Source of the DNA: Paecilomyces variotii
Taxonomy: Eukaryota
NCBI GenBank assembly: GCA_004022145.1
Contig: RCNU01000013.1
Reading direction: 5' to 3' (one strand)
Length of the DNA: 64,000 bases
The notes under the pieces were generated by a model that saw only the letters and a program-made list of their open reading frames with translations, was not told where the DNA came from and ran no database searches. The position numbers were made by a program, and so were the translations under genes. Positions 27,201 through 42,485 of the stretch are shown in pieces. The number at the start of each line of letters is the position of its first letter. Positions within the stretch are counted from its first letter, which is position 1.

Positions 27201-27934
27201 GATTTGCGACTAATCACTTTGTGTAGAATTAAAGGAGTGGCATGCTATCAATGGAGGTTGCGAGCTCAAGTGTGGAGAAGTTCTCTCTTGCGGTCACACT
27301 TGCGAACTTCGTTGTCATAGGTAGGTATATCGCGACTCCCATATTGGATGCATCATTGACGAGTCTCAATAGTTTCTCCCACGATCAAGTGAGCTGCAAT
27401 CAGATTTGTGGGAAACCACTTGCATGTGGGCATGTTTGTCGTGAGCATTGCTCCACCGGTCACCCGTGCCATTGCGAATGCAAACCACCTGCCGTCGAAC
27501 ATGTCACCATTGAGCGTCTCGCCATCGAACGTCTGGCTATGGAAGAAGTACGCCCGACTGTCAGAAGAACTGCTACAAACTCTTCTATCCCTGAGGAGAA
27601 GCACACCGAGCTCGTCCAAAAGTACCATAAATTCGTTAACGGCGGCGCTCAGGAACAAGATGCGTTCCTGAATGCCAGGGCCAAGGACATGGCTTCGGAA
27701 GAGTTGAAACAGCAGCTGGACGACGAGGCATTCAGAGACCTCTTCGGTGGCGAGAACGAGAATACTGCTTCGAAATCGTCTAAACCCCGTAGGGCGCCTT
27801 CGACGAAGCGCGTTCCTGATGGTAAGGGCGGTTACAGAGAGCGGTACGTCGACTATTTCAGCGCACGCACAACTCCAAGCAGAACGTCCAAGGAAAGTTC
27901 CCCAGGACAACACCTCTTGGATAATAGTGATTAA
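24293..27934 (+). CDS. UPF1-like SF1 RNA helicase with NF-X1-type zinc-finger region (Hrr1/ZNFX1-like)
   Basis: YLRAHYELLREDAVAPLR, Walker A QGPPGTGKT, QTNHALDQLL, VEEAAEV, LVGDHKQL, QRRMAPEIR, TVDSYQGEEN, RVCVALSRAKRG and Cys/His-rich CGHxC repeats; introns 24680-24737, ~25097-25143, ~27171-27226, ~27321-27372. Confidence 0.9.
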
Positions 27935-28585
27935 AGGTCCATTTCTTCCACTAGACCTCGAGAACTGGATGACTCTCAGCGGCTTTACTCACATTGCCGA
28001 CAAAAAGATGCTGTCTCACGCCAAGCTACTGGTAGAATAGAGGTCAAGTGGATAGAACCGGATACTGATGCACAGATATCATTTCGAAAAGCTCCAGGCC
28101 ACAATAGATGTTTTTAGTAATTGCATATTCCAATTCAGAAACATTCATTCCCAGATAGATACCTACTACTTACTAGCCAATTTGATGTATCGCGAAAGGC
28201 CCGGCTGATTCAGGGACGTCTCAGTGGCATCTACGCAGATCATCTTCGTCTTGTGACAACGTTGACAGGGATTGCCTCCAGAGCATCTGTAGCCTCTTCG
28301 AAAACAAGCGTCGCATTTCGGGAAAGTTGACGGAGTGATAGACAGAAGCTCCGATACCCTTGACTTCTGTGTCCGCCGCTGCGGTTTCCCTTCCCAAACA
28401 CTAAACGCATATTGAGGACTTTCTGCTCGGGATCAGTCCGACAGTTTGATCTGCTTGCGAGAACGCGATGAGGGTGGGGGCTAGAGCGGAGGTTTCCTTC
28501 CTACTGAGTCATTACCATGTTGCGCCCTCATCGCGTTTTCTTTCTGGGATGCTTGTTGGAAGTACTGGGTTATGTATGTACTTAG

Positions 28586-29532
28586 TCAGATTCCCGTGTA
28601 GTCTGTCATGGAGTTATTTACTTCCGCCCAGAACTCATACTCATCTGAGGCGAGAATCGAAGATGAAAGCTCTCTCCATGATGGCTCATCAGTTGCCCAT
28701 TTCAATCCAAAGTGTTCCCTTGAAGCGACACTGTACCCCGATGCACCCCAGTCAATAATACCAGTTATCTTATCATCGTCGATGATGATGTTGGTGGGAT
28801 GCAAGTCACCATGGGTGAAAGTCTTCCTCTCATCTTGGCCATTTTCCCCAGAGGAAAGGATCCTATCCGCTAGGATACAATCTCTTTTACCAATCAGTCG
28901 ATCATTTGGTCTTGATCTCTGGAGAGCAAGAATAATGCCTGCATTGAACTCTTTCCTGGTTTGGAACGGGCCGTATCGATAGGGCTTGGTTCCCCAGGGA
29001 TGCTTGAATATGACATCTTCACAAGGGCCGCCATCCACAGACCCAAAGAAAGTACCTTCAATTCTGCGCCATTGCTGTACGTAATCTTTGAGCTGCTGCA
29101 CGATAGATTTTCGAGCAGCGATAGACAGACGATCCCAGCATTCTTCGAGAGGAATACCTGGCATCCTCTCCATTAAAATAAACCCAATATCTTCAATCAT
29201 ATAAGCATTCAAAACTTTCGGGACAAGGCACATCGCTTCCGCTTCTCCCATTGAAACCCCATACCCCATTTTCAAAATCATAGACCCGCTAATCTCCAGG
29301 ATTTTACGACCACTAACCCTGTGGGGGCACAGGTCTCTCCCATTCCGAATTTCTTCACAAGTAACGATAGGTCGGGCTTGGTCTCTCATTGAAGGGGCAA
29401 AACGAACGTCGATAGGCGAGGATAATATATGGCAGACATATTCTCGAACATTATATTTGGTGGGCTATGAGACGGTTAGGTTGTAATCATGCTTGTGCTG
29501 TGTATTGTACTTACCTTGTCAACTTCTGCCAT
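28586..29532 (-). CDS. Aminoglycoside phosphotransferase-like (APH/choline kinase family) protein
   Basis: Brenner motif FTHGDLHPTNIII and Mg-binding IIDWG; GEAEAM..VPKV..ILMERMPG. Probable short first exon MAEVDK (29532) with an intron to ~29465 restores the frame. Confidence 0.85.
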
Positions 29533-30314
29533 TATTGTTGCTTCTCGAGGAAATTTTCATGTTGTTGTTGTTGTTGTATTTATTAAAGGCTACAAGAGAT
29601 GGGTAAAGCCTAAAGGCAAAATAGGAGAGAAGGGTAAGGGCCTTACTTAAAGGCCACATGACTTAGTGTGTCAAGTCAAATTGGTAGTATCTTCTTTTTC
29701 TACGGTCAACAAAAGACAAGTTGTTAAGGCTTATTTTCCTTCGTGTTGACCCTCTTTTTGAATTTCGCAGCCTTTATTGTTTCGCATAGAATTAAGGCCG
29801 TACGTTTGATTATTACCCCAAGCATCTCCCGAGTTGTATGCCCGCCCTTGTTGCCGCCTTCGAAATCGATGAGAATGGAATGGAAGACATCGAGGCTGAG
29901 ACTTACCAAAGGGTATCTTCCTGTAGCTAGTTGCATGTGATTAAGATCGCTAAGTACTTAGTCTAGGTCTGTTCGAATGAACGAAGCTAATGCATGTGCA
30001 TTTCGGCCGGTCCATCTCTACTGCATTTCCTGCTTGAATATACCGTACCATTGGGGGCCAATTTCCCTCCGCTCTTTCAACAAGCGAGGGGGCCGAAACT
30101 TGCCATTTGCAGATGGCCTTGAGCCATCGGAGACGCATGCATAGGCGCTATAAACAGCAACCTTCAGCTGAGGCCAGGAACGGCGCGACCTATTAATCCA
30201 CGGAGAAGTTGTCTGCTGGATAACAGCAGCTACAATTGTTTTAAATATAACTGCGCAATCCCTGCTGTTGTGTCTCTTCATTAAAACTCCTTAGGCGATA
30301 TACCTAGTTCGAAG

Positions 30315-32135
30315 ATGCTTTCGCGAATTTTCCGGGTATGGAGGCCAATCCTCCTCCTCTTCCTTAACCTGGTTCTTGCGGTGCATTCCACATCGCCTAA
30401 TTCGACATGTCGCTGTTTTCCGGGCGACAGCTGTTGGCCAACCATTCAGCAATGGCAGCAATTCAATGAGACAATTGGAGGCAGACTGATTGCCACGATA
30501 CCCATCGCCAGCGCCTGCCATAACGATGGTTTTTCGCCGTACAATGAAACACAATGCGCCCAGTTACAATCTGTCTGGGGATTTCCAGAGACTCATTATG
30601 AAAGCTCCTCTTCGATCATGGCTCCGTTCTTCGCGAACCAGAGCTGTGATCCATTCCTTCCTAAAGAAGCACGCTGCATCATCGGGACCTATATCCAGTA
30701 TGCAGTGAATGCGAGTAGCGCATTGGATGTCCAAAAGACGATCGCCTTTGTCAAAGGGCACAACATTCGCCTTGTCATCCGCAATACAGGCCATGATTAT
30801 CTCGGGAAATCGACGGGAGCAGGTGCTGTCGGTATCTGGACTCATCATATGAAAGATATTGAATTCCTCGATTACCGGTCTCCATCATATACCGGGAAGG
30901 CAGTCAAAGTGGGAGCCGGCGTGCAGATATTTGAGGTAAACGAAGCTGCGCACGCCCAAAGCCTCGTGGTGGTGGGAGGCAATTGCCAAACTGTAGGCAT
31001 TGCCGGAGGCTACTCCCAAGGAGGAGGGCATGGTCAACTCGCCTCCAAGTTTGGTCTTGCAGCAGACCAGGTACTGGAATGGGAGGTTGTCACAGCAGAT
31101 GGAGATCTTGTGACAGCATCGCCATCAGAAAATGCGGACCTTTACTGGGCCCTGGCGGGTGGTGGAGGTGGAACATATGGGGTTGTCTTGTCTATGACTA
31201 GCAAAGCCTACCCAGAACTTCAGACGGCGACAGCAAACTTGACTTTTACTAATACCGGCGTCTCTCAAGAGACTTTTCTTGAGGCTGTGCAGACATTCGT
31301 TACTGGTCTCAATCCCATACTGGATGCTGGCGGGGTGAGCATCTGGTTGTTGACCAATTCATCGTTTTCCACGACACCCACCACTCTTCCAGGGGGGACA
31401 AAAGCTGAATTACAGAACCTTCTGAGCCCGTCCCTCAAAGCATTAGAGAAGAGCAATATCACCTACAGTAAGTCATGAATGAATCTCCTGAATAGAAGGA
31501 TAATCGCTGATTCTCGCAGCTTATTTCATTGATGAGTTCTCGACTTATTATGAAAGCTACCAAGTGATGAACCCAGTCGCGAATATCACTGAAGCACAGA
31601 TGGGAGGACGACTCATTCCACGTTCTCTGATAGATTCGAATGCTGAAGCGCTCACGACCGCCTTCCGGAGAATTCTCGCCTCTGAGACTGGTGTGGTCCT
31701 TTCGGGAATCTCAGTAAACGTTTCGCGACAAGACGCGCCAGACAACGCTGTAAATCCTTTCTGGCGTGAGTCTGTACTGGACCTTGTGATTGGGACGTAT
31801 GTTTTTTTCCCTCCTTAAAGATTCTCTGAACTTGACTGATTCCCATATGCAGACCCTGGAGTTACACTGACTGGGATCACGACCTTGCTGATCGGAATCT
31901 AATCACCAATGAACTTCTCCCTATCCTCGAAAGATTAACTCCCGGAGGGGGCGGTTACCTCAACGAGGCGGATTCTGACCAGCCACACTGGCAACGGGTC
32001 TTCTATGGGTCGAACTACAAGGCCCTCTCCGCAATAAAAGAGAAGTATGATCCAGATCACATCTTCTACGCAGTGACCGGAGTAGGTAGTGAAAGGTGGA
32101 TACAGAAGGCAGATGGGAGGTTATGTAAGTTGTAG
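30315..32135 (+). CDS. Secreted FAD-linked oxidoreductase (berberine bridge enzyme-like)
   Basis: Signal peptide, CRCFPGDSCWP, RNTGHDYLGKSTG (flavinylated His), GGNCQTVGIAGGYSQGGGHG, DLYWALAGGGGGTYGVV, C-terminal BBE domain GYLNEAD..FYGSNY..L..IKEKYDPDHIF; introns ~31468-31519 and ~31797-31852. Confidence 0.92.
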
Positions 32136-32348
32136 AAGGCAGATAATTTGAGTTGATCCTGCAAATCTATTCAAGGTAGTACATAAGATGACAATTCCGA
32201 ATTTATGTTAGCAGATTTGAGCTTCTTCCTCTAATTCCATCCCTGTCAATAATACCACAGACTGCGATAAGCGGATAACCATCTTCTCCCATAGACATGG
32301 ACAGAAGAATGAAGGTCTCACAGGTATCCATTAGTTCCCTAGGTTCTC

Positions 32349-33335
32349 CTATGCAACTCTAGCACATAATGGCATGACATATACAGTCGTAATCCAGAGG
32401 TTCCAAATAATAAATGTTCTCTTATCGCTTCTCACATTGCGGAAGAGGAGTGTTCGAGCGGCAACGGCCCACGCCAATGCACAGCTTACACTGGCAAATA
32501 TAACATGGACATTCCAGAATATCGGACAGAACAGGCCCCATGCTAGCATTGGGACAGCAATACTCCATCGTGCTGCTCTGTCGCCAATCACCAATGGTAC
32601 TGTGCGACGTCCCCGTTCTGCGTCGCCTTCCTGATCATAAATATCCTGCGTATGGACTGTCGATATGATGATTCCCGCGACAACGAGCAGCCACGGCAAA
32701 AGACGTTGGGAGGAATAGAAAGGAAGAGGACCTCCGCCTAAAGCAACCTCCAACGCTCCTGATATGAAGCATAGATACCCCAGAGCATTGATGAGGTTCC
32801 GAACTAGAGGATTTGAGTCGGCGCCACCCATGTTGTTGTACCAGGTGCCGAGGACGAGTAGGCCCAGCGACTGGCGAAGCCCTCCGCTGAATAACAGACT
32901 GTATGTCTGAGCTGCAGCATAGAAGACCAACATCGTGTACTTTGCTTGTCCCGACGTCATGCGTTTGCTCGGAAGTGGTCTCCAAGGTTTATTCACAGAA
33001 TCCTCAGCAATGGCAGAGATATCGCGCTGGTTATTTATCGTGAACGGGAGAAGATTGATCCAGACCCAAACAAGAACAGCGGGGGTCTGTTGTAAAAGAA
33101 TATAAAAAAGTTTGGATTTTAGCGTCGGCGGGAGTGATAACGAGGGAAGGCCATAGCTCGGAGCTGCCAACGAGTTTGCGATCCCAAAGATAGTACTCGG
33201 GATTAAGATGGTCTTGAGGTCACTGAAAGTGAAGAGCCAGATAGAATATGAATGGTATAGCGAGTGGGAGAACAGTCCGATCAGGCTCTGACTGACGCCT
33301 GCGATAAAATAATGTATACGGACCTTTTCTCTCAT
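32349..33335 (-). CDS. UbiA-superfamily membrane terpene cyclase / prenyltransferase (Fma-TC-like)
   Basis: Multi-TM 328-aa ORF with IWLFTFSDLKTILIP, NQRDISAIAEDSVNKPWRPLPS, WYNNMGG..RNLINALGY and second Asp-rich motif HTQDIYDQEGDAERGRRTVP, as in fungal UbiA-type sesquiterpene cyclases. Confidence 0.85.
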   Translation of the reverse strand: MREKVRIHYFIAGVSQSLIGLFSHSLYHSYSIWLFTFSDLKTILIPSTIFGIANSLAAPSYGLPSLSLPPTLKSKLFYILLQQTPAVLVWVWINLLPFTINNQRDISAIAEDSVNKPWRPLPSKRMTSGQAKYTMLVFYAAAQTYSLLFSGGLRQSLGLLVLGTWYNNMGGADSNPLVRNLINALGYLCFISGALEVALGGGPLPFYSSQRLLPWLLVVAGIIISTVHTQDIYDQEGDAERGRRTVPLVIGDRAARWSIAVPMLAWGLFCPIFWNVHVIFASVSCALAWAVAARTLLFRNVRSDKRTFIIWNLWITTVYVMPLCARVA

Positions 33336-34204
33336 GTTGCCGTCCAGAAGAGTCAGAATGCCGCGGCTCGTTCCTATTGATTTTCTGAGCTAAAGGTTGT
33401 TTTTCATTATTTTAACAGGGGGAGGTAGGTGGCCTATTAATGGGTTCTAAGTACACTGAGCCATTCATTTTCTTGTATGTTCTTGGGCCCCATGGCCTAG
33501 TAGGCAATCGCCTACCTCCTTCACTTTGGGGCCTAGCCCAGAGCACAGCTTATAGTTATAGCTAGATAGCTGCTGGAGCTGGAGCTCGCTCTCTCCTAGG
33601 GAATACAAGCCCTTGACCAGTCCTTTCCTCTCTAGCGGCCATGATATCTCAATCCAAAATGCGTCGCGCCGACATAATGGAGACGACCAGAATACCCGTG
33701 CACCATGCTAGCAACTTCCGTTTTATCTAATAATATATGCAATGGTACCAGATAGACTTAGTTCCAGATATTTTGGAATACCATAGCGCCAGTGCTCGTC
33801 TCAGCGCCTACTAAGTCCCTAGTTTGTAAAAGTCGACACCCAACATTAGCTGCCAATTGCCAATCCGCAGTCTACGCACTAATGTATGCATCATGCCGAT
33901 CGGTGTACATAGCCACTATTTTTCGATTTTCAGCTAACATGGTAACATGCCGGCGGATATTCTAAGAAAAAGGGCCCCCAATCTGCAGCATCGGTCTGCA
34001 GGGATAGGATCGACGAGTCAGGTTCCAATGTGAATGTATGAGCTATTGAGCCTAAGCCTAATATTTATGCTCTTGTTTTTTGGGGCCCTGATTGGACAGA
34101 GATTGTTGAATGTCTCAAAATTGCCGCGATATATCTAGAGATTCTACCAGCAGAGAGCTCCTCACCATCCATCTTAATGTTCCCATAGTTACTGTACGAA
34201 AAAA

Positions 34205-36170
34205 ATGTTGCGAAATAATGTACTTGCAGCCGCCCTAGGTGTGCTCGCACATCAAGTTGTTTTCATACACGGAGAATGGCATTTGAGAGCGCCGGCCGTC
34301 GTCATTGTCCATTTTCTTATTGGTATATTCATATATACAACCGAGATATCGAAAGACGAACAGAATGGGCTCTTGTCTGCCACTGTTCTCGTCTGTCTAT
34401 ATCTTGCCTCTCTCCTCTCAAGTATCTCGATTTATCGTCTATTTTTCCATCCTTTAAGGCACTTTCCAGGTCCACGACTAGTAGCATTGACCAAACTATG
34501 GCACGTCTGGAAGTGCCGTGATTCCCGCGGCCATCATGTCTTGGATGAATGGCATAAGAGCTACGGAACCTTCGTGCGTACAGGTGAGTATGGTATTTGT
34601 CGAGTGTTCAATAAAACTTCGATATTAAAAACTTAGCACAGGTCCTGCAGAAATCACAATTTTCCATCCAGTAGCCTACCAGGCGATGGATGGACCCGGA
34701 AACCAGAACACTCGGTCCGACTGGTATGATCTTCTCTATCCACGGATTTCATCTATCTTTACTCGGGACCGAAAACTGCACAGCTCGCGCCGCAAGTTGT
34801 GGGAGCGGGCATTAAGCAGGAAAGGTGAGTCGTGTTCAGCCCGACTAAGTAACTAAGTAGCCAAAACCACGCCTGTACTGACACAAAGAGTCAAGCTCTC
34901 ATGGAATACTATGAAAGAGTTCGGGAAAAGGTTCATACTCTAGAAAGTCTAGTTATGTCCCAGAACTCCCGACCAGTGGATATCAACAAGCTGATGTACT
35001 GGTTTGCCTTCGATTCCATGGGAGATTTTGCCTTTAGTGAAGATTTCGGTATGATGAAGAACAAGGCTTGGCACCAGAACATTGTCATGCTGCGTTCTGC
35101 TCTCGCATTATTGGGGCCCTTGAGCCCGGCAATTTGGATTCCACGGCTGGGGTTCGCATTCATTCCTGGTCTTTGGAGAGTACGAGACTGGTTCCAAATG
35201 TTGGCCTTCTGTGACAAGTGTATGGAACGACGGATGAAACGGAAGGTTGAGAGCAAAGATATCGCGTCGTGGTTTATCGAGGATCATTTAACCCGCGAAC
35301 ATGATAGTAATCGACATCGCTGGCTTAGTGGTGATACTGCCACTCTCGTCGTGGCTGGAAGGTCAGTATCTTCTCACAGATCACTTGAAGCAAAGCTAGC
35401 AGCTGATTTATCTATGATAGTGACACAACTGCCCCCAGTCTCTCTATATTGTTTTATTTCCTGGCACGCTATCCAGAGCATGTTGAGAAGATCAACTTGG
35501 AGATCATGTCCGTCGACCACGAAGATCCAAATGCCTTGGCGGCCTTGCCGCATCTCAACGGCACTATCAACGAGGCAATGCGCCTTCTGCCAGCGGTGCT
35601 TACATTCAGTTCTCGAGTAACGCCCCCTGAAGGTATCACCGTTGAAAACACCTTTATTCCTGGGAATACTAAAATCTGCGCCCCACGCTATACGATTGGA
35701 AGACGTGAGTGAAGCTTGCTTCGAACAAAGATTGTATGACTAATTGTCTGGAATAGTTGAGTGTGCTTATGAGCAACCGAATGATTTTATTCCTGAGCGA
35801 TGGTATAGTCGGCCAGAACTGATCAAGGACAGACGTGCATTTGCTCCCTTTGGAGTCGGTACGCATTCTCTTCATTCCCTTCTTCTTTTGTATGACCCCC
35901 TCGAAACAACTCTTAATAACAACAACACTAGGTCACACGAGCTGTGTCGGAAAACACCTCGCCATCGCACAGATCCGGCTTGTTGCTGCCAACCTGATCG
36001 CTCGGTATCGTATCGAGTTTGCTCCCGGTGAAGGTAGTGGAGAAGCAGTCGAAAGAGATATGAAGGATCAGCTTACCGCTCGGCCTGGACGATTCCATCT
36101 CATTTTTGTGCCACGAAGGATGGATACTTTGCCTGTTGGAAATGAAGAAAGTAAAGGTCTTGTTCAATAG
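34205..36170 (+). CDS. Cytochrome P450 monooxygenase
   Basis: N-terminal TM, HPLRHFPGP, I-helix VVAGSDTT, ExxR (NEAMRL), FIPERW and heme motif FGVGHTSCVGKHLA, assembled across 5 GT-AG introns with consistent phases. Confidence 0.95.
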
Positions 36171-36262
36171 CTATTTCCGGGAATAGGAATTTTGATAAAA
36201 TATGATTGTTTCTTGGTTCTTGCATTATAATGACAGAGTTTGAGTATAGAAGATCTCCTTGT

Positions 36263-37162
36263 TTACGGATTTGGAAGGAATCCCCACGAGACATGAATGT
36301 CAAACCTCACGTAGCAACCCGACTGGATATCTGCCTCTGCTTGACGCTCCAGTTCGTCCAGCCGTTCTGAGCTCAAGGCGCCGGGAGCGCCCTTCGAGGC
36401 CATGAGTCGTGCCCACGAGAATATCGCAGTCATTCCGTTTGCTGTCAGGGCTTTACGCGTTTCCGGGAGTCGATCCGAGCTGACAATGTCCTCCTGCACC
36501 TGCTCCAATCCAGCGGCCTTCATATCCTGCGGCAGAGTAGACCAGCCGTGTGAGAACCGAGTCTGCAGGCCATCCCGGAACAAACGTCCCATGAAGCGTG
36601 CCGCTGCGACTGTCGATTCCGGCTGGCCACGATAGTGTTGGACTCCAATGAAATTGCACTCCTCCCACTGCATCGCACCCCCAGGCTTCAAAAGCTGTGC
36701 CAAGTTCTGTACTACGCTGCTCCATTCATCTGGCTGCAGACCAGCTGCTATCAAGCGAACATGCACTAAGTCATAAGTGCCACGTAATGCCGGAGGCACG
36801 GGCTGCCGAGCATCCAGGGTAGATAGGTTGACGTTAGGTGGGCGGCTAGAGGGAGGATAGAATAGGGCTGGCGAAAGATCATATCCATCTAGCGTGGCGG
36901 ATGAATAAACGGGCGCTAACATGTGGAGGAAGATCCCCGTGCCAGTGCCCACATCGGCGATCCGAGGATTTGGGGGCAGCCGCTGGGCGATTTCAGGATG
37001 CACAAGGTAACTCAGGTTTCTGTGCTCGTTGCTAATCAGTAACGATGAAGAAATTTGGCCTGCCTCCGACGGAACTCACTTGGTGAGCAGATCAAACTGC
37101 TGATCGAGTCTAGAAGCTTCAGCTTGGTGACGACTCATGACTTCCACGTACGAGTCGGACAT
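36263..37162 (-). CDS. Class I SAM-dependent methyltransferase (LaeA-like family)
   Basis: EASRLDQQF, SAM motif IADVGTGTGIF, YDLVHVRL, LLKPGGAMQWEE; one intron ~37022-37079. Confidence 0.9.
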
Positions 37163-37819
37163 GGTGGATAACTCAGGGACCAGTCAACGAATAGATGCGG
37201 ATGGTATAGTTGATGGATAAGAACTTAGACTCCCGTGAAGGTGCAACAGTTCCTAAATATGCCCCGTCACTCGCAGAATAGAATGCCTACTAACCGCCAG
37301 GGTTTCCTGGTATACATCTGCTCCGGGTCATGGCGGCGGTATGTTCGCAATGGAAACTCGAAAAGGTAAGGGGTGTTAAGCTCTCAAGTTGCGCTATCGG
37401 CTTCTGCACATCAGATAAACAGAGAATAGTTCCTGATCCGGGGTTCTTAATGCAGATTGCCGCAGGGTGCATATGGCCCCCAAACTAAAGACATCATCTC
37501 TTCTTTCCGACCAACACTCAAGCATCAATTGCTAGTGCAACCGTAGTGTATGCATGCTGCATACACTGCTGTTGACATGGATATGAGACGTAATGTCATG
37601 TATTCCCGGATGTTACGTGGGGGCCGTTATGCACAGTTGATGTTGTACATAGTGTACAGACTGCATACTCAGGCCCCCAACACTCTGCGCTTTCCCAGTC
37701 GATCACCTTGATTATCATTTCACGGACAGATATATCTCTGATAATATGGTGTCGACTTTCTGGAATCATGTTCATTCGAAACGGGGAGCAAGGTTCTGTC
37801 TAGGAAGAAGAGAGCAACC

Positions 37820-39132
37820 ATGGCGTACATGGGCTCGCGTGGACCAGCACTGATTGTTGCCAGCCTGGTGCTGCTCGTCCTGGCCGCAACCGCTGTCATT
37901 CTTCGCATCATTTCTAGTCACATTCGCAAAAAGCCCTTCAAAGTCCATGACTATCTCGTTTTTCTATCACTGGTAGGTTTCCCAGGACGATTCCGGTCTC
38001 CAAATCGTTACTGACGCCTTGACGGTTGTAGTTCTGCTTGACAGGATATGTAATTGACGTTATCGTCGGTATGACTCTCCATCATGTTTTCTGGTAGTAG
38101 GCTTTGTTGACCATCCACAGGAGCTGTTGAGGGCGGGTATGGCGACCATGTCTCGGATATGCCGCTTGACAAGTTGACAGTTGCCCTCAAAGTAAGTCAT
38201 CATCTCGTGTATCACATTAGCCGGCTTACTTGCTGACATTTCAGATATTCTTTGTGTCAGAATGGCTCTGGGCGATCGCGGTGGCTACCTTCCGTTTGGC
38301 CATTATTGCGCTCTACGTTGAAATCTTCCAAATAACTACCTTCTACTGGGTCGCGATGGGGACCGGCACTGTAGTTTTCCTCTATTGGGTAGCCACCGTT
38401 TTTACCATCGCGCTTCTGTGCCGGCCTATTTCCTATAACTGGGACCGAACGATCCATGGTGTTTGTGGAGAGGTCGTCTTAACTGAATATGCATCAGCTG
38501 GGTTTAACATGGGAATCGACTTGTGGGTCGTCTCCTTGCCATTGCCCATGGTATGGCGCCTGCACATGGCAAACCGCAAGAAGTTGGGCGTCACGGGCAC
38601 CTTCGCGCTAGGAATTATGTACGTATTCTTTGCTGTCCTACTCGCACGATGGACCGTCTGGATTAATCCCAAGCGATACAGAACGGCGGGCATCAACCTT
38701 GGCCGGGCGATTCAGACCAAGGTCTGCCCTTCTGACGATCTCACGTATTGTGCGCGGGACAGCTCGATTCTTGTCATCGCCGAGATGACCGCGGGGATCC
38801 TTGTTGCTTGTGTTCCGACCTTTGGGTCAGTACTATTCCGACGCAAAAATGACAAGAGTTTACCGCGATACGACGACGCACCCCCAACCATTGGATCAAA
38901 ACGCCGCCGCGACCGACCTATTCCACCGGGCGAGTTCTCGTTTGACGACGATTTTGCGATCAAATCACCTGGGATGCAAGGCCCAAACAAGATAGGCCCA
39001 GGCGCGCACATTGAGCCGGGTAAGCCGGGAGGCGGGCGAGGTCCCTGTGAAATAGTCGTGACAAGGGACTTGGATGTCTCGAGCATAGACCTACAGCCGC
39101 TGACAATGGAAATCCCAAGAAGTTCAGTATAG
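37820..39132 (+). CDS. Pth11-like / fungal rhodopsin-domain integral membrane protein (no CFEM domain)
   Basis: Multiple TM helices, VILRIISS..HDYLVFLSL, GGYGDH, LLCRPISYNWD..GVC, FNMGIDLWVVSLPLPMVWRLHM..KK, AEMTAGILVACVP; 4 introns. Confidence 0.88.
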
Positions 39133-39969
39133 CGTGTAAAAATGGGAATGATTCTTTTTCTTTTTTTCTGTCTTTCTTTTTTTCACCCCTGCTCTTGTGT
39201 TGTATATACTATACTGTGCTGGTTCCAACAATCAGAGACAGATCCTGTCCCAGTCTGTAGCAATATGCGAATCTGATAGCAGTAGGCGCCGCCCATAATC
39301 GAGTCCACATCCTGGCTAGTTGGTCTTTGAGTCGTCTATATAGAGTATGGCCCATGCGTTGGATCAATTGTGTACTCGTCGAGACGAACTGACTGAGACT
39401 TCAGCGAGTGTGGGGGCCAATGACTCACATAGAGCAACCTGACGCTGTGATGTGTTTCTGTGGGTTTGATGACAGGAACTGTTTCTCCTCCATAATTCAG
39501 CCCCAAACTGTGTCTGCATGCGGAGTGAGATTTTGAATTTGAATCCCTGCTTAGTTTCTTGCCAGGTGGGCCAAGTGTCAGGACATCAGATCAGAACCCC
39601 TCACAAGCCTCGAGTGCTTCTGATAGTCACAGGAGCCACATGCATGGGGTGAAGTTCTTTGTCTGTATCCAGGCCATGCCCTTCTGCCTCGACAGATAGA
39701 CCTCCCGGTGCAAATCATTGACTATTGACCATTAATAACCATCGCACAAACCAGACGAACTCTAGTCTGCCCCTCCAAGGCTCGGTCCTTTGTTCTGAAC
39801 TAGTTCAAGGTCAGCGTTGCAGGAAGCAGGAAGGCGCAGGGACTGGGTGAATGAAACTCATATATTGAGCTCCCCTCCCCGCGCCAGTGTCTTTCTCCCT
39901 TGTCAGTGGCACACCTACATTCAGACCAGTCAAATCGAGTTGGTTGTCGACCGGTTGCTTGACATTATC

Positions 39970-40886
39970 ATGGACAGTTCTCTTGCGAATCTGGCTGTGG
40001 TCGTCTGCCATGGATCGTACCACACGCCTGCCCCCTATGAGGCCTTCCTCCAGGCAATAAGGGCCCGCGGCATCGAGGCCTACTGTCCGCAGCGTCCATC
40101 CAGCGACCTCAGCAAGCTCAATGTTGGCGATGTCAATAATCCCGATTTCGACCGGGGGCCTCCCGAGGGAGGCTATCCCACCGAAGCCGACGATGCAGAG
40201 GTTATCGTCGAACTTCTGAAAAAGTTGATCGACGAGGAGGGCAAATGGGTATTGCTAGTTGGCCACTCGTCTGGCGGCTGGGTGGCTACTGAGGCGGCCA
40301 AGCCAGAATTACAAGCAACCACTCGCAAAGCTGAAGGAAAACAAGGCGGCGTGGTTGGGATTTTCTATATGGGCGCGTTTATCATCCCCGTTGGAGAATC
40401 GGTGCATAGCTTCTTCCAACCCAAGGATCGCCCCGTCGTCGCTCCGCCATTCATGAGATTCCATGTGAGTCTCTGTTCCAGTGTCGTTCCTTTTTGATCA
40501 ATGCTAATGGTTCTGTGCGCTTATTGCAGAAGCACGGTCTTGATGGCCTGGGCACAGTCACAGATGCGCGCCAGTATTTTTTCAATGACCTTGACGAAGA
40601 GTCTGCAAAGAAATGGGCTGCAACCTTGACGGCGGGGGCTGTGATGCCTGTGCGCCTCACAAACAACGCCTATGCAACTGTTCCCTGCGCATACCTCGTT
40701 CTTGAGAAAGACCAGACTCTTTCCCCAGAATATCAGGAGGGCATGGTGGCCCTGCAGAACCAGAAAGGCACACCCCCCTTTACCATGTATTATGCACCAT
40801 CTGGTCACGCACCGTATCTCAGCTGGACGGAGGGACTCGTCGGTAAACTGGAAGAGTTTGCAAGAAAGGTTCTGCCATCCCAGTAG
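39970..40886 (+). CDS. Alpha/beta hydrolase (AB hydrolase_6-like)
   Basis: Oxyanion motif VVCHGSYHTP, nucleophile elbow VGHSSGG, candidate Asp (EKDQTL) and His (SGHAPYLS); one intron ~40465-40530. Confidence 0.9.
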
Positions 40887-41426
40887 AAATGCTTGAGTGT
40901 ATTTGTTAGCTGCATGTTCTCTGCAGAAATAAGACAGAATCTTAATCGGTCCGATATACACATCCACGACATCAAAGTAGCTAGAGAGGATTGACTCGGC
41001 TAGGATAGCAACATCGCTCCTTTGAGCGGCCAGGAGTAGATCGATCCCAGAGAAGCAGTAACCATAAGTTCGCTTTTTGTGCGCAAGCCACCCCTCGAGG
41101 CGAAAGAGAAACTGTCGCTACACCATTTCTTAGAGTTATATCTAGATCACTTCACTTTACACATCACCAGCAAGGACGACATAACAATGAAAACACTCTC
41201 TCTACACAACATCAAGCGGGGAAGTCTGAGATAAGAAAGGAAGCCCCACAGTATTAGAAATACAGACTGCGATAACCACGTGTAACTATGGCCTAAATTC
41301 AAAGCACATACATACATATACTGTATGTTTGAACGATATATAATTCTGAGGCTTCTCCCTCTTCTCAGCTAACTCACTCTGCCTGGTTTCCGGCTCTCTG
41401 CTTTTTCCAGCATCTCCGCTTCCGCC

Positions 41427-42485
41427 ATGCCCAACTTCGGGAAAATCAACGGCCCCGCCATCTTTGTGGCGCAATACCTCTCAGATGAAGCACCATTCAA
41501 TAGCCTAGACGGAATTGCTCAATGGGCAGCAAGTCTCGGATTCAAAGGAATACAGATCCCCGTCGACGACAGGTTGATTGATATCGAGAAAGCCGCAAAC
41601 GACCAGGCATACTGCAACGATTTGTTAGCCACACTCAAACACCACAACATCCAGTTGACAGAGCTATCCACACATCTTCAAGGGCAGCTGATCGCTGTTC
41701 ATCCGGCTTATGATATCCTATTCGATGGTTTTGCACCACAGGATGTCCGCGGAAACCCCCCGCGACGGGAAGAGTGGGCTCGAAAGATTCTCTTTTCAGC
41801 AGCCAAGGCTTCCAAAAACCTCGGATTGACAGCTCATGCCACATTCAGCGGATCACTCTTATGGCCATATATGTATCCCTGGCCACAGCGGCCGGAGGCA
41901 TTGGTTGAGAAAGGGTTCAGCGAACTTGCGGCTCGCTGGAAGCCGATCCTTGATGCGTTCGATGAAGCGGGCGTTGATCTCTGCTATGAAATCCACCCGG
42001 GAGAGGACCTCCATGATGGAGTCTCTTTCGAGCGATTCCTCGCAGCAGTTGGTGGGCATCGACGAGCCTGTATCCTTTACGACCCTAGCCATTTCGTACT
42101 GCAGCAGCTCGATTACCTTGGCTTTCTCGATTTGTATCACGACCGCATCAAAATCTTCCATGTCAAGGACGCAGAGTTTCTGCCAGACGCACGCCAAGGT
42201 GTCTATGGTGGATTCAGTTCCTGGACAGAACGAGCCGGTCGGTTCAGGGCTCTCGGAGATGGCCAGGTAGATTTCAGAGGCATTTTCACAAGACTGATAA
42301 AGAACAGCTATAGCGGATGGGCCGTTTTGGAGTCTGAATGTGCATTTAAGAACAAGATGACCTGCGCTGAAGAGGGGGCTAAGTTTATAGCAAGCCACAT
42401 ATTCCCTGTTGCGGAATCGAGCTTCGATGACTTTGCTGGATCGGAAATCAGTGATGACCAGGTTTCCAAGATATTGGGGATTTGA
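41427..42485 (+). CDS. Xylose isomerase-like TIM-barrel sugar phosphate isomerase/epimerase (bacterial-type)
   Basis: Intronless 352 aa; GPAIFVAQY..APFNSL, STHLQGQLIAVHPAYD, YPWPQRP, YEIHPGEDLHDG, YDPSHF, FHVKDAEF, GRFRALGDGQVDF metal-binding TIM-barrel motifs. Confidence 0.88.
   Translation: MPNFGKINGPAIFVAQYLSDEAPFNSLDGIAQWAASLGFKGIQIPVDDRLIDIEKAANDQAYCNDLLATLKHHNIQLTELSTHLQGQLIAVHPAYDILFDGFAPQDVRGNPPRREEWARKILFSAAKASKNLGLTAHATFSGSLLWPYMYPWPQRPEALVEKGFSELAARWKPILDAFDEAGVDLCYEIHPGEDLHDGVSFERFLAAVGGHRRACILYDPSHFVLQQLDYLGFLDLYHDRIKIFHVKDAEFLPDARQGVYGGFSSWTERAGRFRALGDGQVDFRGIFTRLIKNSYSGWAVLESECAFKNKMTCAEEGAKFIASHIFPVAESSFDDFAGSEISDDQVSKILGI

Follow-up and report, generated by a model that had tools for sequence, protein, structure and literature searches.

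A G-run promoter word recurs across a putative UbiA-type terpene cyclase gene cluster of Paecilomyces variotii

Many fungal biosynthetic clusters lack a regulator gene of their own and are silent in culture. Islands of common promoter motifs are a property of fungal clusters according to the CASSIS paper: a short word occurs in consecutive promoters of co-localized biosynthetic genes and is bounded by motif-free promoters, and how far such an island reaches serves to predict the borders of the cluster and the kind of regulator (PMC4824125). For terpenoids, the Tri6 paper reports that the word YNAGGCC is enriched in Fusarium trichothecene promoters, that its enrichment in the promoters of isoprenoid-pathway genes is limited to one lineage, and that purified Tri6 bound GTGA repeats, not YNAGGCC, in electrophoretic mobility-shift assays (PMC3182926). 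UbiA-type cyclases with a neighbouring cytochrome P450 form a general class, for which 326 fungal clusters are counted in a preprint (bioRxiv 10.1101/247940). Here we analyse a 64,000-nucleotide stretch of P. variotii contig RCNU01000013.1 (assembly GCA_004022145.1; hereafter the window), in which the 8-mer TGGGGGCC (reverse complement GGCCCCCA) recurs in the promoters of a putative UbiA-type sesquiterpene-cyclase cluster.

The locus compares closely with these systems and is not surprising in kind: it is a CASSIS-type motif island. As in the islands described for CASSIS, a short word is found in consecutive promoters of co-localized biosynthetic genes, with motif-free promoters at its bounds. 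CASSIS also requires a low genome-wide promoter frequency, for which the window and the DNA of other fungi serve as proxies here; and the anchor is a UbiA-type cyclase, not a polyketide synthase, nonribosomal peptide synthetase or dimethylallyl tryptophan synthase (PMC4824125). The likeness to the Tri6 case lies in a short, asymmetric word ending in GGCC in terpenoid-cluster promoters, and the Tri6 word was attributed to a C2H2 factor; unlike Tri6, which is encoded within its cluster, no factor is encoded in the present one (PMC3182926). As for Fma-TC and Fma-P450 of fumagillin, a UbiA-family membrane cyclase adjoins a P450 gene (bioRxiv 10.1101/247940). Beyond these two, the present cluster encodes a methyltransferase, a Pth11-like membrane protein, a hydrolase and a BBE-type oxidase, but not the polyketide synthase of the fumagillin cluster.

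The 8-mer occurs exactly six times in the window, counted over coding and noncoding DNA, and all six copies are intergenic. The sequence-only reading that first drew attention to this locus had placed six copies in the promoters of the cluster and none in other intergenic DNA; both statements hold, and the coding DNA is free of exact copies as well. Dinucleotide shuffles of the window contain a mean of 1.70 copies and a maximum of 4, and none of 100 shuffles reaches six. One copy (30052..30059, plus strand) lies 256 bp upstream of the ATG of a flavin adenine dinucleotide (FAD) oxidase gene at 30315 and 520 bp from the divergent ATG of an APH-like kinase gene at 29532. Another (33973..33980, minus) lies 225 bp upstream of the P450 ATG at 34205 and 638 bp from the ATG of the cyclase gene. 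Three copies share the divergent promoter between the methyltransferase and Pth11-like genes: at 37475-37482 (minus), 313 bp upstream of the methyltransferase ATG at 37162 (minus strand); at 37618-37625 (plus), 195 bp upstream of the Pth11-like ATG at 37820; and at 37672-37679 (minus), which is 141 bp away from the Pth11-like start codon and 510 bp away from that of the methyltransferase. The sixth (39411..39418, plus) is separated by 279 bp from the stop codon of the Pth11-like gene and lies 552 bp upstream of the hydrolase ATG at 39970.

Near-matches accompany the exact copies. Those listed in the sequence-only reading, at 30087 (AGGGGGCC), at 33527 and 34081 (TGGGGCC) and at 39499 (AGCCCCAA), are all present, although the list was incomplete: it omitted TGGGGCC on the minus strand at 33486, TTGGGGCC at 35111 within the P450 coding sequence and GGGGGCC at 40154 within the hydrolase coding sequence. 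Four intergenic variants share the GGGGCC core. AGGGGGCC (30087..30094, plus) lies 221 bp upstream of the FAD-oxidase ATG; a four-G variant, TGGGGCC (33486..33492, minus), is 151 bp upstream of the cyclase ATG at 33335 (minus); and TTGGGGCC occurs twice on the plus strand of the cyclase/P450 divergent promoter, at 33526..33533 and, 118 bp upstream of the P450 ATG, at 34080..34087. Aligning these four with the six exact copies gives the consensus TKGGGGCC; the base that precedes the core T is variable, and nothing downstream of the word is conserved across the ten sites. TKGGGGCC itself has nine copies in the window, all within 30052-39418 and eight of them intergenic. The ten sites are distributed as two in the APH-like/oxidase region, four between cyclase and P450, three between methyltransferase and Pth11-like gene and one upstream of the hydrolase, so that each of the four promoter-bearing intergenic regions has one to four copies of the GGGGCC core, in both orientations and 118-638 bp upstream of start codons. 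One-mismatch variants of the 8-mer are at background level (40 observed, 42.5 expected), and all eight positions therefore seem constrained. The word is asymmetric, and the ten sites lack a symmetric partner at fixed spacing.

Some copies have recognizable neighbours. Immediately after the copy near the hydrolase gene come CCAAT and TGACTCA, in that order (39411-39432), which we take to be a CCAAT box and an AP-1/Gcn4-type word. CCAAT or ATTGG also overlaps two other copies, those at 30052 and 33973. The APH-like/oxidase promoter additionally contains a (GTT)n microsatellite at 29550-29587.

We evaluated enrichment in a promoter set that was defined without the motif, namely the four intergenic regions flanking the syntenic genes (3,149 bp), with background frequencies taken either from this window or from the fungal loci retrieved for comparison. 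An unbiased k-mer search of these four promoters ranked GGCCCC (10 of its 27 window copies), GGCCCCC (7 of 9) and GGCCCCCA (6 of 6) highest, with Bonferroni-corrected values of 4.9e-4 at K=6, 5.7e-5 at K=7 and 4.1e-5 at K=8, and no other k-mer in this set was significant. The same search, with two-letter words filtered out, was run on every group of four successive intergenic regions; in the 12 groups that include no cluster region, all values at K=8 were at least 0.15. In order-3 Markov simulations, any 8-mer with at least six copies appeared in 1 of 3,000 promoter sets.

Composition is not the cause of this enrichment, because the four promoters match the other intergenic DNA of the window in GC content (0.464 versus 0.451) and in the density of runs of five G (2.5 versus 2.2 per kb). 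What differs is the context of those runs: seven of eight are followed by CC in these promoters, compared with 2 of 73 elsewhere (Fisher 8e-8). The 18.3 kb of other intergenic DNA in the window contains no exact copy, and 1.08 Mb of fetched fungal DNA contains 23, or 1.37 per 64 kb. The occurrence of the word in exactly the intergenic regions with the promoters of these genes is thus neither random nor a product of composition.

The same genes are picked out by synteny, independently of the motif. We compared the window with 80 fungal metagenome loci around cyclase homologues (not dereplicated), querying them with the exon translations of the window. Matches to the P450 were found in 33 loci, to the Pth11-like protein in 29, to the methyltransferase in 14 and to the hydrolase in 7; the FAD oxidase is picked out only weakly, with matches in two loci of a single lineage. 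None of the 80 loci has a match to the motif-free neighbours (the APH-like, TIM-barrel and AtuA genes). Four loci (L004, L005, L006 and L008) retain both the divergent P450/cyclase pair and the methyltransferase/Pth11-like/hydrolase block. The proposal that the word serves exactly six genes and marks the limits of the cluster therefore survives in part. The extent of the island is that of the recurring syntenic set and motif-free promoters flank it, but 'exactly six' is too strong, because the first promoter also serves the divergent APH-like gene, which leaves the left border ambiguous, and because synteny extends to the oxidase in just two of the 80 loci.

The reading that we favour, with a probability of roughly 0.6, is that TKGGGGCC is a lineage-specific binding site of a factor encoded outside the cluster, which would switch the six genes together. 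A sequence-specific DNA-binding protein would recognise the word at ten sites, spread over the four intergenic regions in which every promoter of the putative sesquiterpenoid cluster lies, and three bidirectional promoters and one unidirectional promoter would convey its control to six genes. Because the three bidirectional regions have two to four copies each, a single factor could switch gene pairs together. The enrichment of the word, its placement, its independence of composition and repeats and its agreement with synteny are observed; from them we infer that a protein binds the word and that the same protein co-regulates the genes. The word provides a concrete bait for the regulator of an uncharacterised UbiA-type sesquiterpenoid cluster, as well as a cluster border that agrees with synteny.

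Several results weigh against this reading. Conservation in orthologous promoters, a check set beforehand, failed: among relatives that are distant (cyclase identity of at most 56%), the seven syntenic homologous loci have no copy of the 8-mer, neither GGGGCC nor TKGGGGCC is enriched in 14 syntenic loci, no conserved motif stands out in homologous cyclase/P450 promoters, and the same island test in other lineages, which has lower power, finds no comparable island. When no region is specified in advance, a GC-rich 8-mer with six copies in 9.4 kb appears in 11 of 150 order-1 and 9 of 150 order-3 Markov windows (6-7%), so that clustering by itself is weak evidence; and a look-elsewhere cost applies because a very large scan preceded the choice of this finding. 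An enriched word need not be a binding site, as the failure of purified Tri6 to bind the enriched YNAGGCC shows (PMC3182926). Finally, the motif-free neighbours are transcribed in the same RNA sample as the cluster genes, in which contig depth cannot rank expression.

A chance coincidence, in which six copies of a rare 8-mer lie in these promoters by accident and draw attention because many windows were scanned for such patterns, would fit both the simulated frequency of equally clustered words and the lack of conservation in homologous clusters. We nevertheless regard it as improbable. The test of promoters chosen a priori gives 1 in 3,000 by simulation and 4.1e-5 after Bonferroni correction; the promoters concerned contain four variant copies in addition; their runs of five G are followed by CC far more often than runs elsewhere (Fisher 8e-8); the island coincides with a gene set defined by synteny; and three sites share the neighbour TATGCA, a coincidence matched in 8 of 20,000 random trials.

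If a protein does read the word, it is probably encoded outside the cluster. The sequence-only reading had placed the regulator in trans since the cluster encodes no transcription factor, and this is supported: none was found among the six cluster genes, the Zn2Cys6 signature was found in 0 of the 80 homologous loci, and the syntenic block of three annotated homologous loci contains no transcription-factor domain. Because neither the cluster nor its homologues encode such a factor, a trans-acting regulator is reasonable, and control in trans seems to hold for the cluster family. Many Aspergillus nidulans clusters are likewise tabulated without an in-cluster factor in one review (PMC8395729). 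Literature searches added little: the matches listed for the raw TGGGGGCC and GGCCCCCA strings were only unrelated primer or human sequences, and among those listed for regulation of terpene clusters in P. variotii nothing was specific.

The same reading had also argued that the word is not a CGG-binding site, and the promoters bear this out. Among 39 gapped CGG-pair patterns tried, none occurs in more than two of the four regions (best p 0.146); the density of CGG/CCG triplets is 17.8 versus 20.8 per kb; and the 8-mer contains neither CGG nor CCG on either strand. A classical Zn2Cys6 binuclear-cluster site, which would show as fixed-spacing CGG/CCG pairs common to the promoters, is not indicated. 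The positive proposal of the sequence-only reading, a C2H2 zinc finger, is plausible because a G-run word would suit C2H2 fingers, and the word has the asymmetric G-rich core of 6-9 bp, lacking dyad symmetry, that such a site calls for, although even if the word is a regulator's site we hold the assignment only tentatively, at somewhat less than even chances, and the binding is a prediction. Readings as a CreA-type SYGGRG site or a stress-response element (AGGGG) were set aside, because no more than two of the ten sites match the former and one the latter.

A related alternative is that the word is the site of a broad-domain regulator of carbon, stress or developmental responses (for example, an Adr1-, Mig1- or CreA-like C2H2 protein), which would have many targets across the genome and be dense here without being specific to the cluster or marking its borders. 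The G-run core after T or K resembles the yeast Adr1 (TTGGRG) and Mig1 (SYGGGG) words, a match by consensus words only: TTGGGG is present in 6 of the 10 sites and GTGGGG in 2 of the 10 (PMC3897899, Table 2). The many A. nidulans clusters without an in-cluster factor are compatible with it, too. In contrast to what such a regulator would lead one to expect, no copy of the word occurs in the remaining 18.3 kb of intergenic DNA or anywhere else in the window, its invariant GCC tail falls outside both the Adr1 and the Mig1 words, and the background level of one-mismatch variants suggests constraint over all eight positions. We consider this alternative unlikely, and about as unlikely as chance.

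One fragment of a possible regulator gene lies close to the cluster. At 28169-28432 on the minus strand, an 88-amino-acid stop-to-stop frame shows the whole Zn2Cys6 signature, with a Pfam Zn_clus score of 23.8 bits against a cutoff of 21. The frame is located 1.2 kb past the cluster edge, in a 650-bp gap between the stops of the convergent ZNFX1-like and APH-like genes, and is covered by a low-depth RNA contig in the metatranscriptome X16. The fragment looks like a relic of a regulator gene, because there is no in-frame methionine upstream and no room for the remaining protein. We rejected it as the ancestral regulator of the cluster, as Zn2Cys6 patterns are absent from all 80 loci and tblastn gave no E-value better than 0.31.

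The promoter shared by the methyltransferase and Pth11-like genes has an architecture of its own. Each of its three TGGGGGCC copies is followed on the motif strand by TATGCA, at a distance of 1 nt (composite 37468..37482, minus), 2 nt (37618..37633, plus) or 4 nt (37662..37679, minus). At the centre of the promoter, a 37-bp near-perfect palindrome (37538..37574) has 17-nt arms that are 88% complementary and contains two inverted TATGCA words. Together, the composite sites and the palindrome form nested inverted repeats across 37460-37690, and the single-strand DNA fold of this promoter has a z-score of -5.0, with none of 200 shuffles folding equally well. TATGCA may recruit a second, partner factor in this one promoter. 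In one study, TATGCATA is reported as a motif of Efg1 (an APSES protein) in a filamentous fungus (PMC9562828), which we treat as a lead only.

In the other three regions, the flanks of the copies are unrelated beyond the 8-mer, and the copies are therefore not pieces of one repeat. A dispersed repeat or miniature inverted-repeat transposable element is not indicated by these sites, which have no similarity past the core except TATGCA in a single promoter and no copies elsewhere in the window; a search of 27900-41500 for Rfam families returned none. For two segments, 33557-33644 in the cyclase/P450 promoter and 30616-30652 in the oxidase gene, the sets X8 and X15 contain look-alikes on other contigs, and the word TTGGGGCC is missing from the look-alike upstream of 33557. 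That the word is a by-product of sequence history, in the form of remnants of a small inverted-repeat element, a local duplication or gene conversion between promoters, is very improbable: the three copies with TATGCA do share a 14-bp composite within strongly folding inverted repeats, and the two segments do partly have look-alikes on contigs of related strains, but the copies of the other three regions have only the 8-mer in common, none lies elsewhere in the window, the spacing to TATGCA varies and no target-site duplication was visible on inspection by eye.

Promoter words appear to be lineage-limited elsewhere in this cluster family. In the homologous locus L003 (14900-15520), and also in L062, dense GCATATGC palindromes lie just upstream of the methyltransferase homologue, and 11 of the 14 copies of CATATGC in the locus fall there. 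The GCATATGC run is absent in the sister lineage L004, and L003/L062 appears to have a promoter island of its own. Because the word island and the GCATATGC run are each limited to a lineage, promoter words turn over within the family, a lineage limit comparable to that reported for YNAGGCC (PMC3182926). That other fungi have the same gene set without the word is a small but clear case in which regulation changes while gene content is kept.

A more detailed history can be built on this, which we put forward as a minority possibility that is doubtful as a whole. The ten TKGGGGCC sites would have arisen de novo in the Paecilomyces lineage when an outside regulator, probably of the C2H2 type, recently captured a cluster family that was ancestrally without a regulator; composite TKGGGGCC-TATGCA modules would have formed, as nested inverted repeats, around the palindrome of the methyltransferase/Pth11-like promoter, and L003/L062 would have used GCATATGC palindromes in that promoter instead. 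If this were true, the cluster family would be a natural series for the turnover of cis-regulatory islands, and the 8-mer could serve as a bait for the regulator.

The genes of the cluster were identified by Pfam searches of stop-to-stop reading frames, which support the earlier gene calls and refine one of them, the 'cyclase', to a UbiA-family protein. The cyclase gene (32349..33335, minus) is intronless and encodes 328 amino acids (Pfam UbiA, E = 3.6e-20). Its product shares 98% identity with a P. variotii protein and about 51-56% with relatives, among them one that bears the name of the fumagillin beta-trans-bergamotene synthase (Fma-TC). The Pfam match and this named relative identify it as a UbiA-type terpene cyclase (UTC). 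With an Fma-TC-homologous UbiA membrane protein and an adjoining P450, the locus fits the definition of a UTC cluster, and activity on farnesyl diphosphate is predicted.

Divergent from the cyclase gene is the P450 gene (34205..36170, plus), which has four GT..AG joints and whose homologues adjoin the cyclase in 33 of the 80 loci. The FAD_binding_4 and BBE domain oxidase gene (30315..32135, plus) has two introns, is represented by a spliced RNA contig and is syntenic only in L011 and L012. The methyltransferase gene (36263..37162, minus) has one intron, with a joint at 37019/37080, and the gene for the Fung_rhodopsin (Pth11-like) membrane protein (37820..39132, plus) has four introns supported by RNA joints. 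The alpha/beta-hydrolase gene (39970..40886, plus) has one intron and an RNA contig with poly(A) loose ends near 40954, and is followed downstream, in order, by genes for a TIM-barrel protein, AtuA and an ABC transporter. On the other side, the APH-like kinase gene (ATG at 29532, minus) is divergent from the oxidase gene.

RNA contigs of X16 show splicing of GT..AG introns in the APH-like, oxidase, P450, methyltransferase, Pth11-like, hydrolase and AtuA genes; the contig over the cyclase gene, which has no intron, is unspliced. These contigs indicate that the genes are real and transcribed. Two DNA contig sets that cover the region are about 2% divergent from the window, with 397 differences in 20 kb for X8 and 351 in 17.4 kb for X11. 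In the coding region of the APH-like gene, contigs of X8, X11 and X16 contain 24 nt more than the window at 29221, so that strains differ in the length of this gene while the reading frame is kept.

The Pth11-like gene has a wider association with this class of cyclase. A Fung_rhodopsin protein is encoded beside UbiA-type cyclase genes in 29 of the 80 loci (for example, L004:16657-18960), compared with 7 for the hydrolase. The Pth11-like membrane protein may therefore be a working part of such clusters rather than a bystander.

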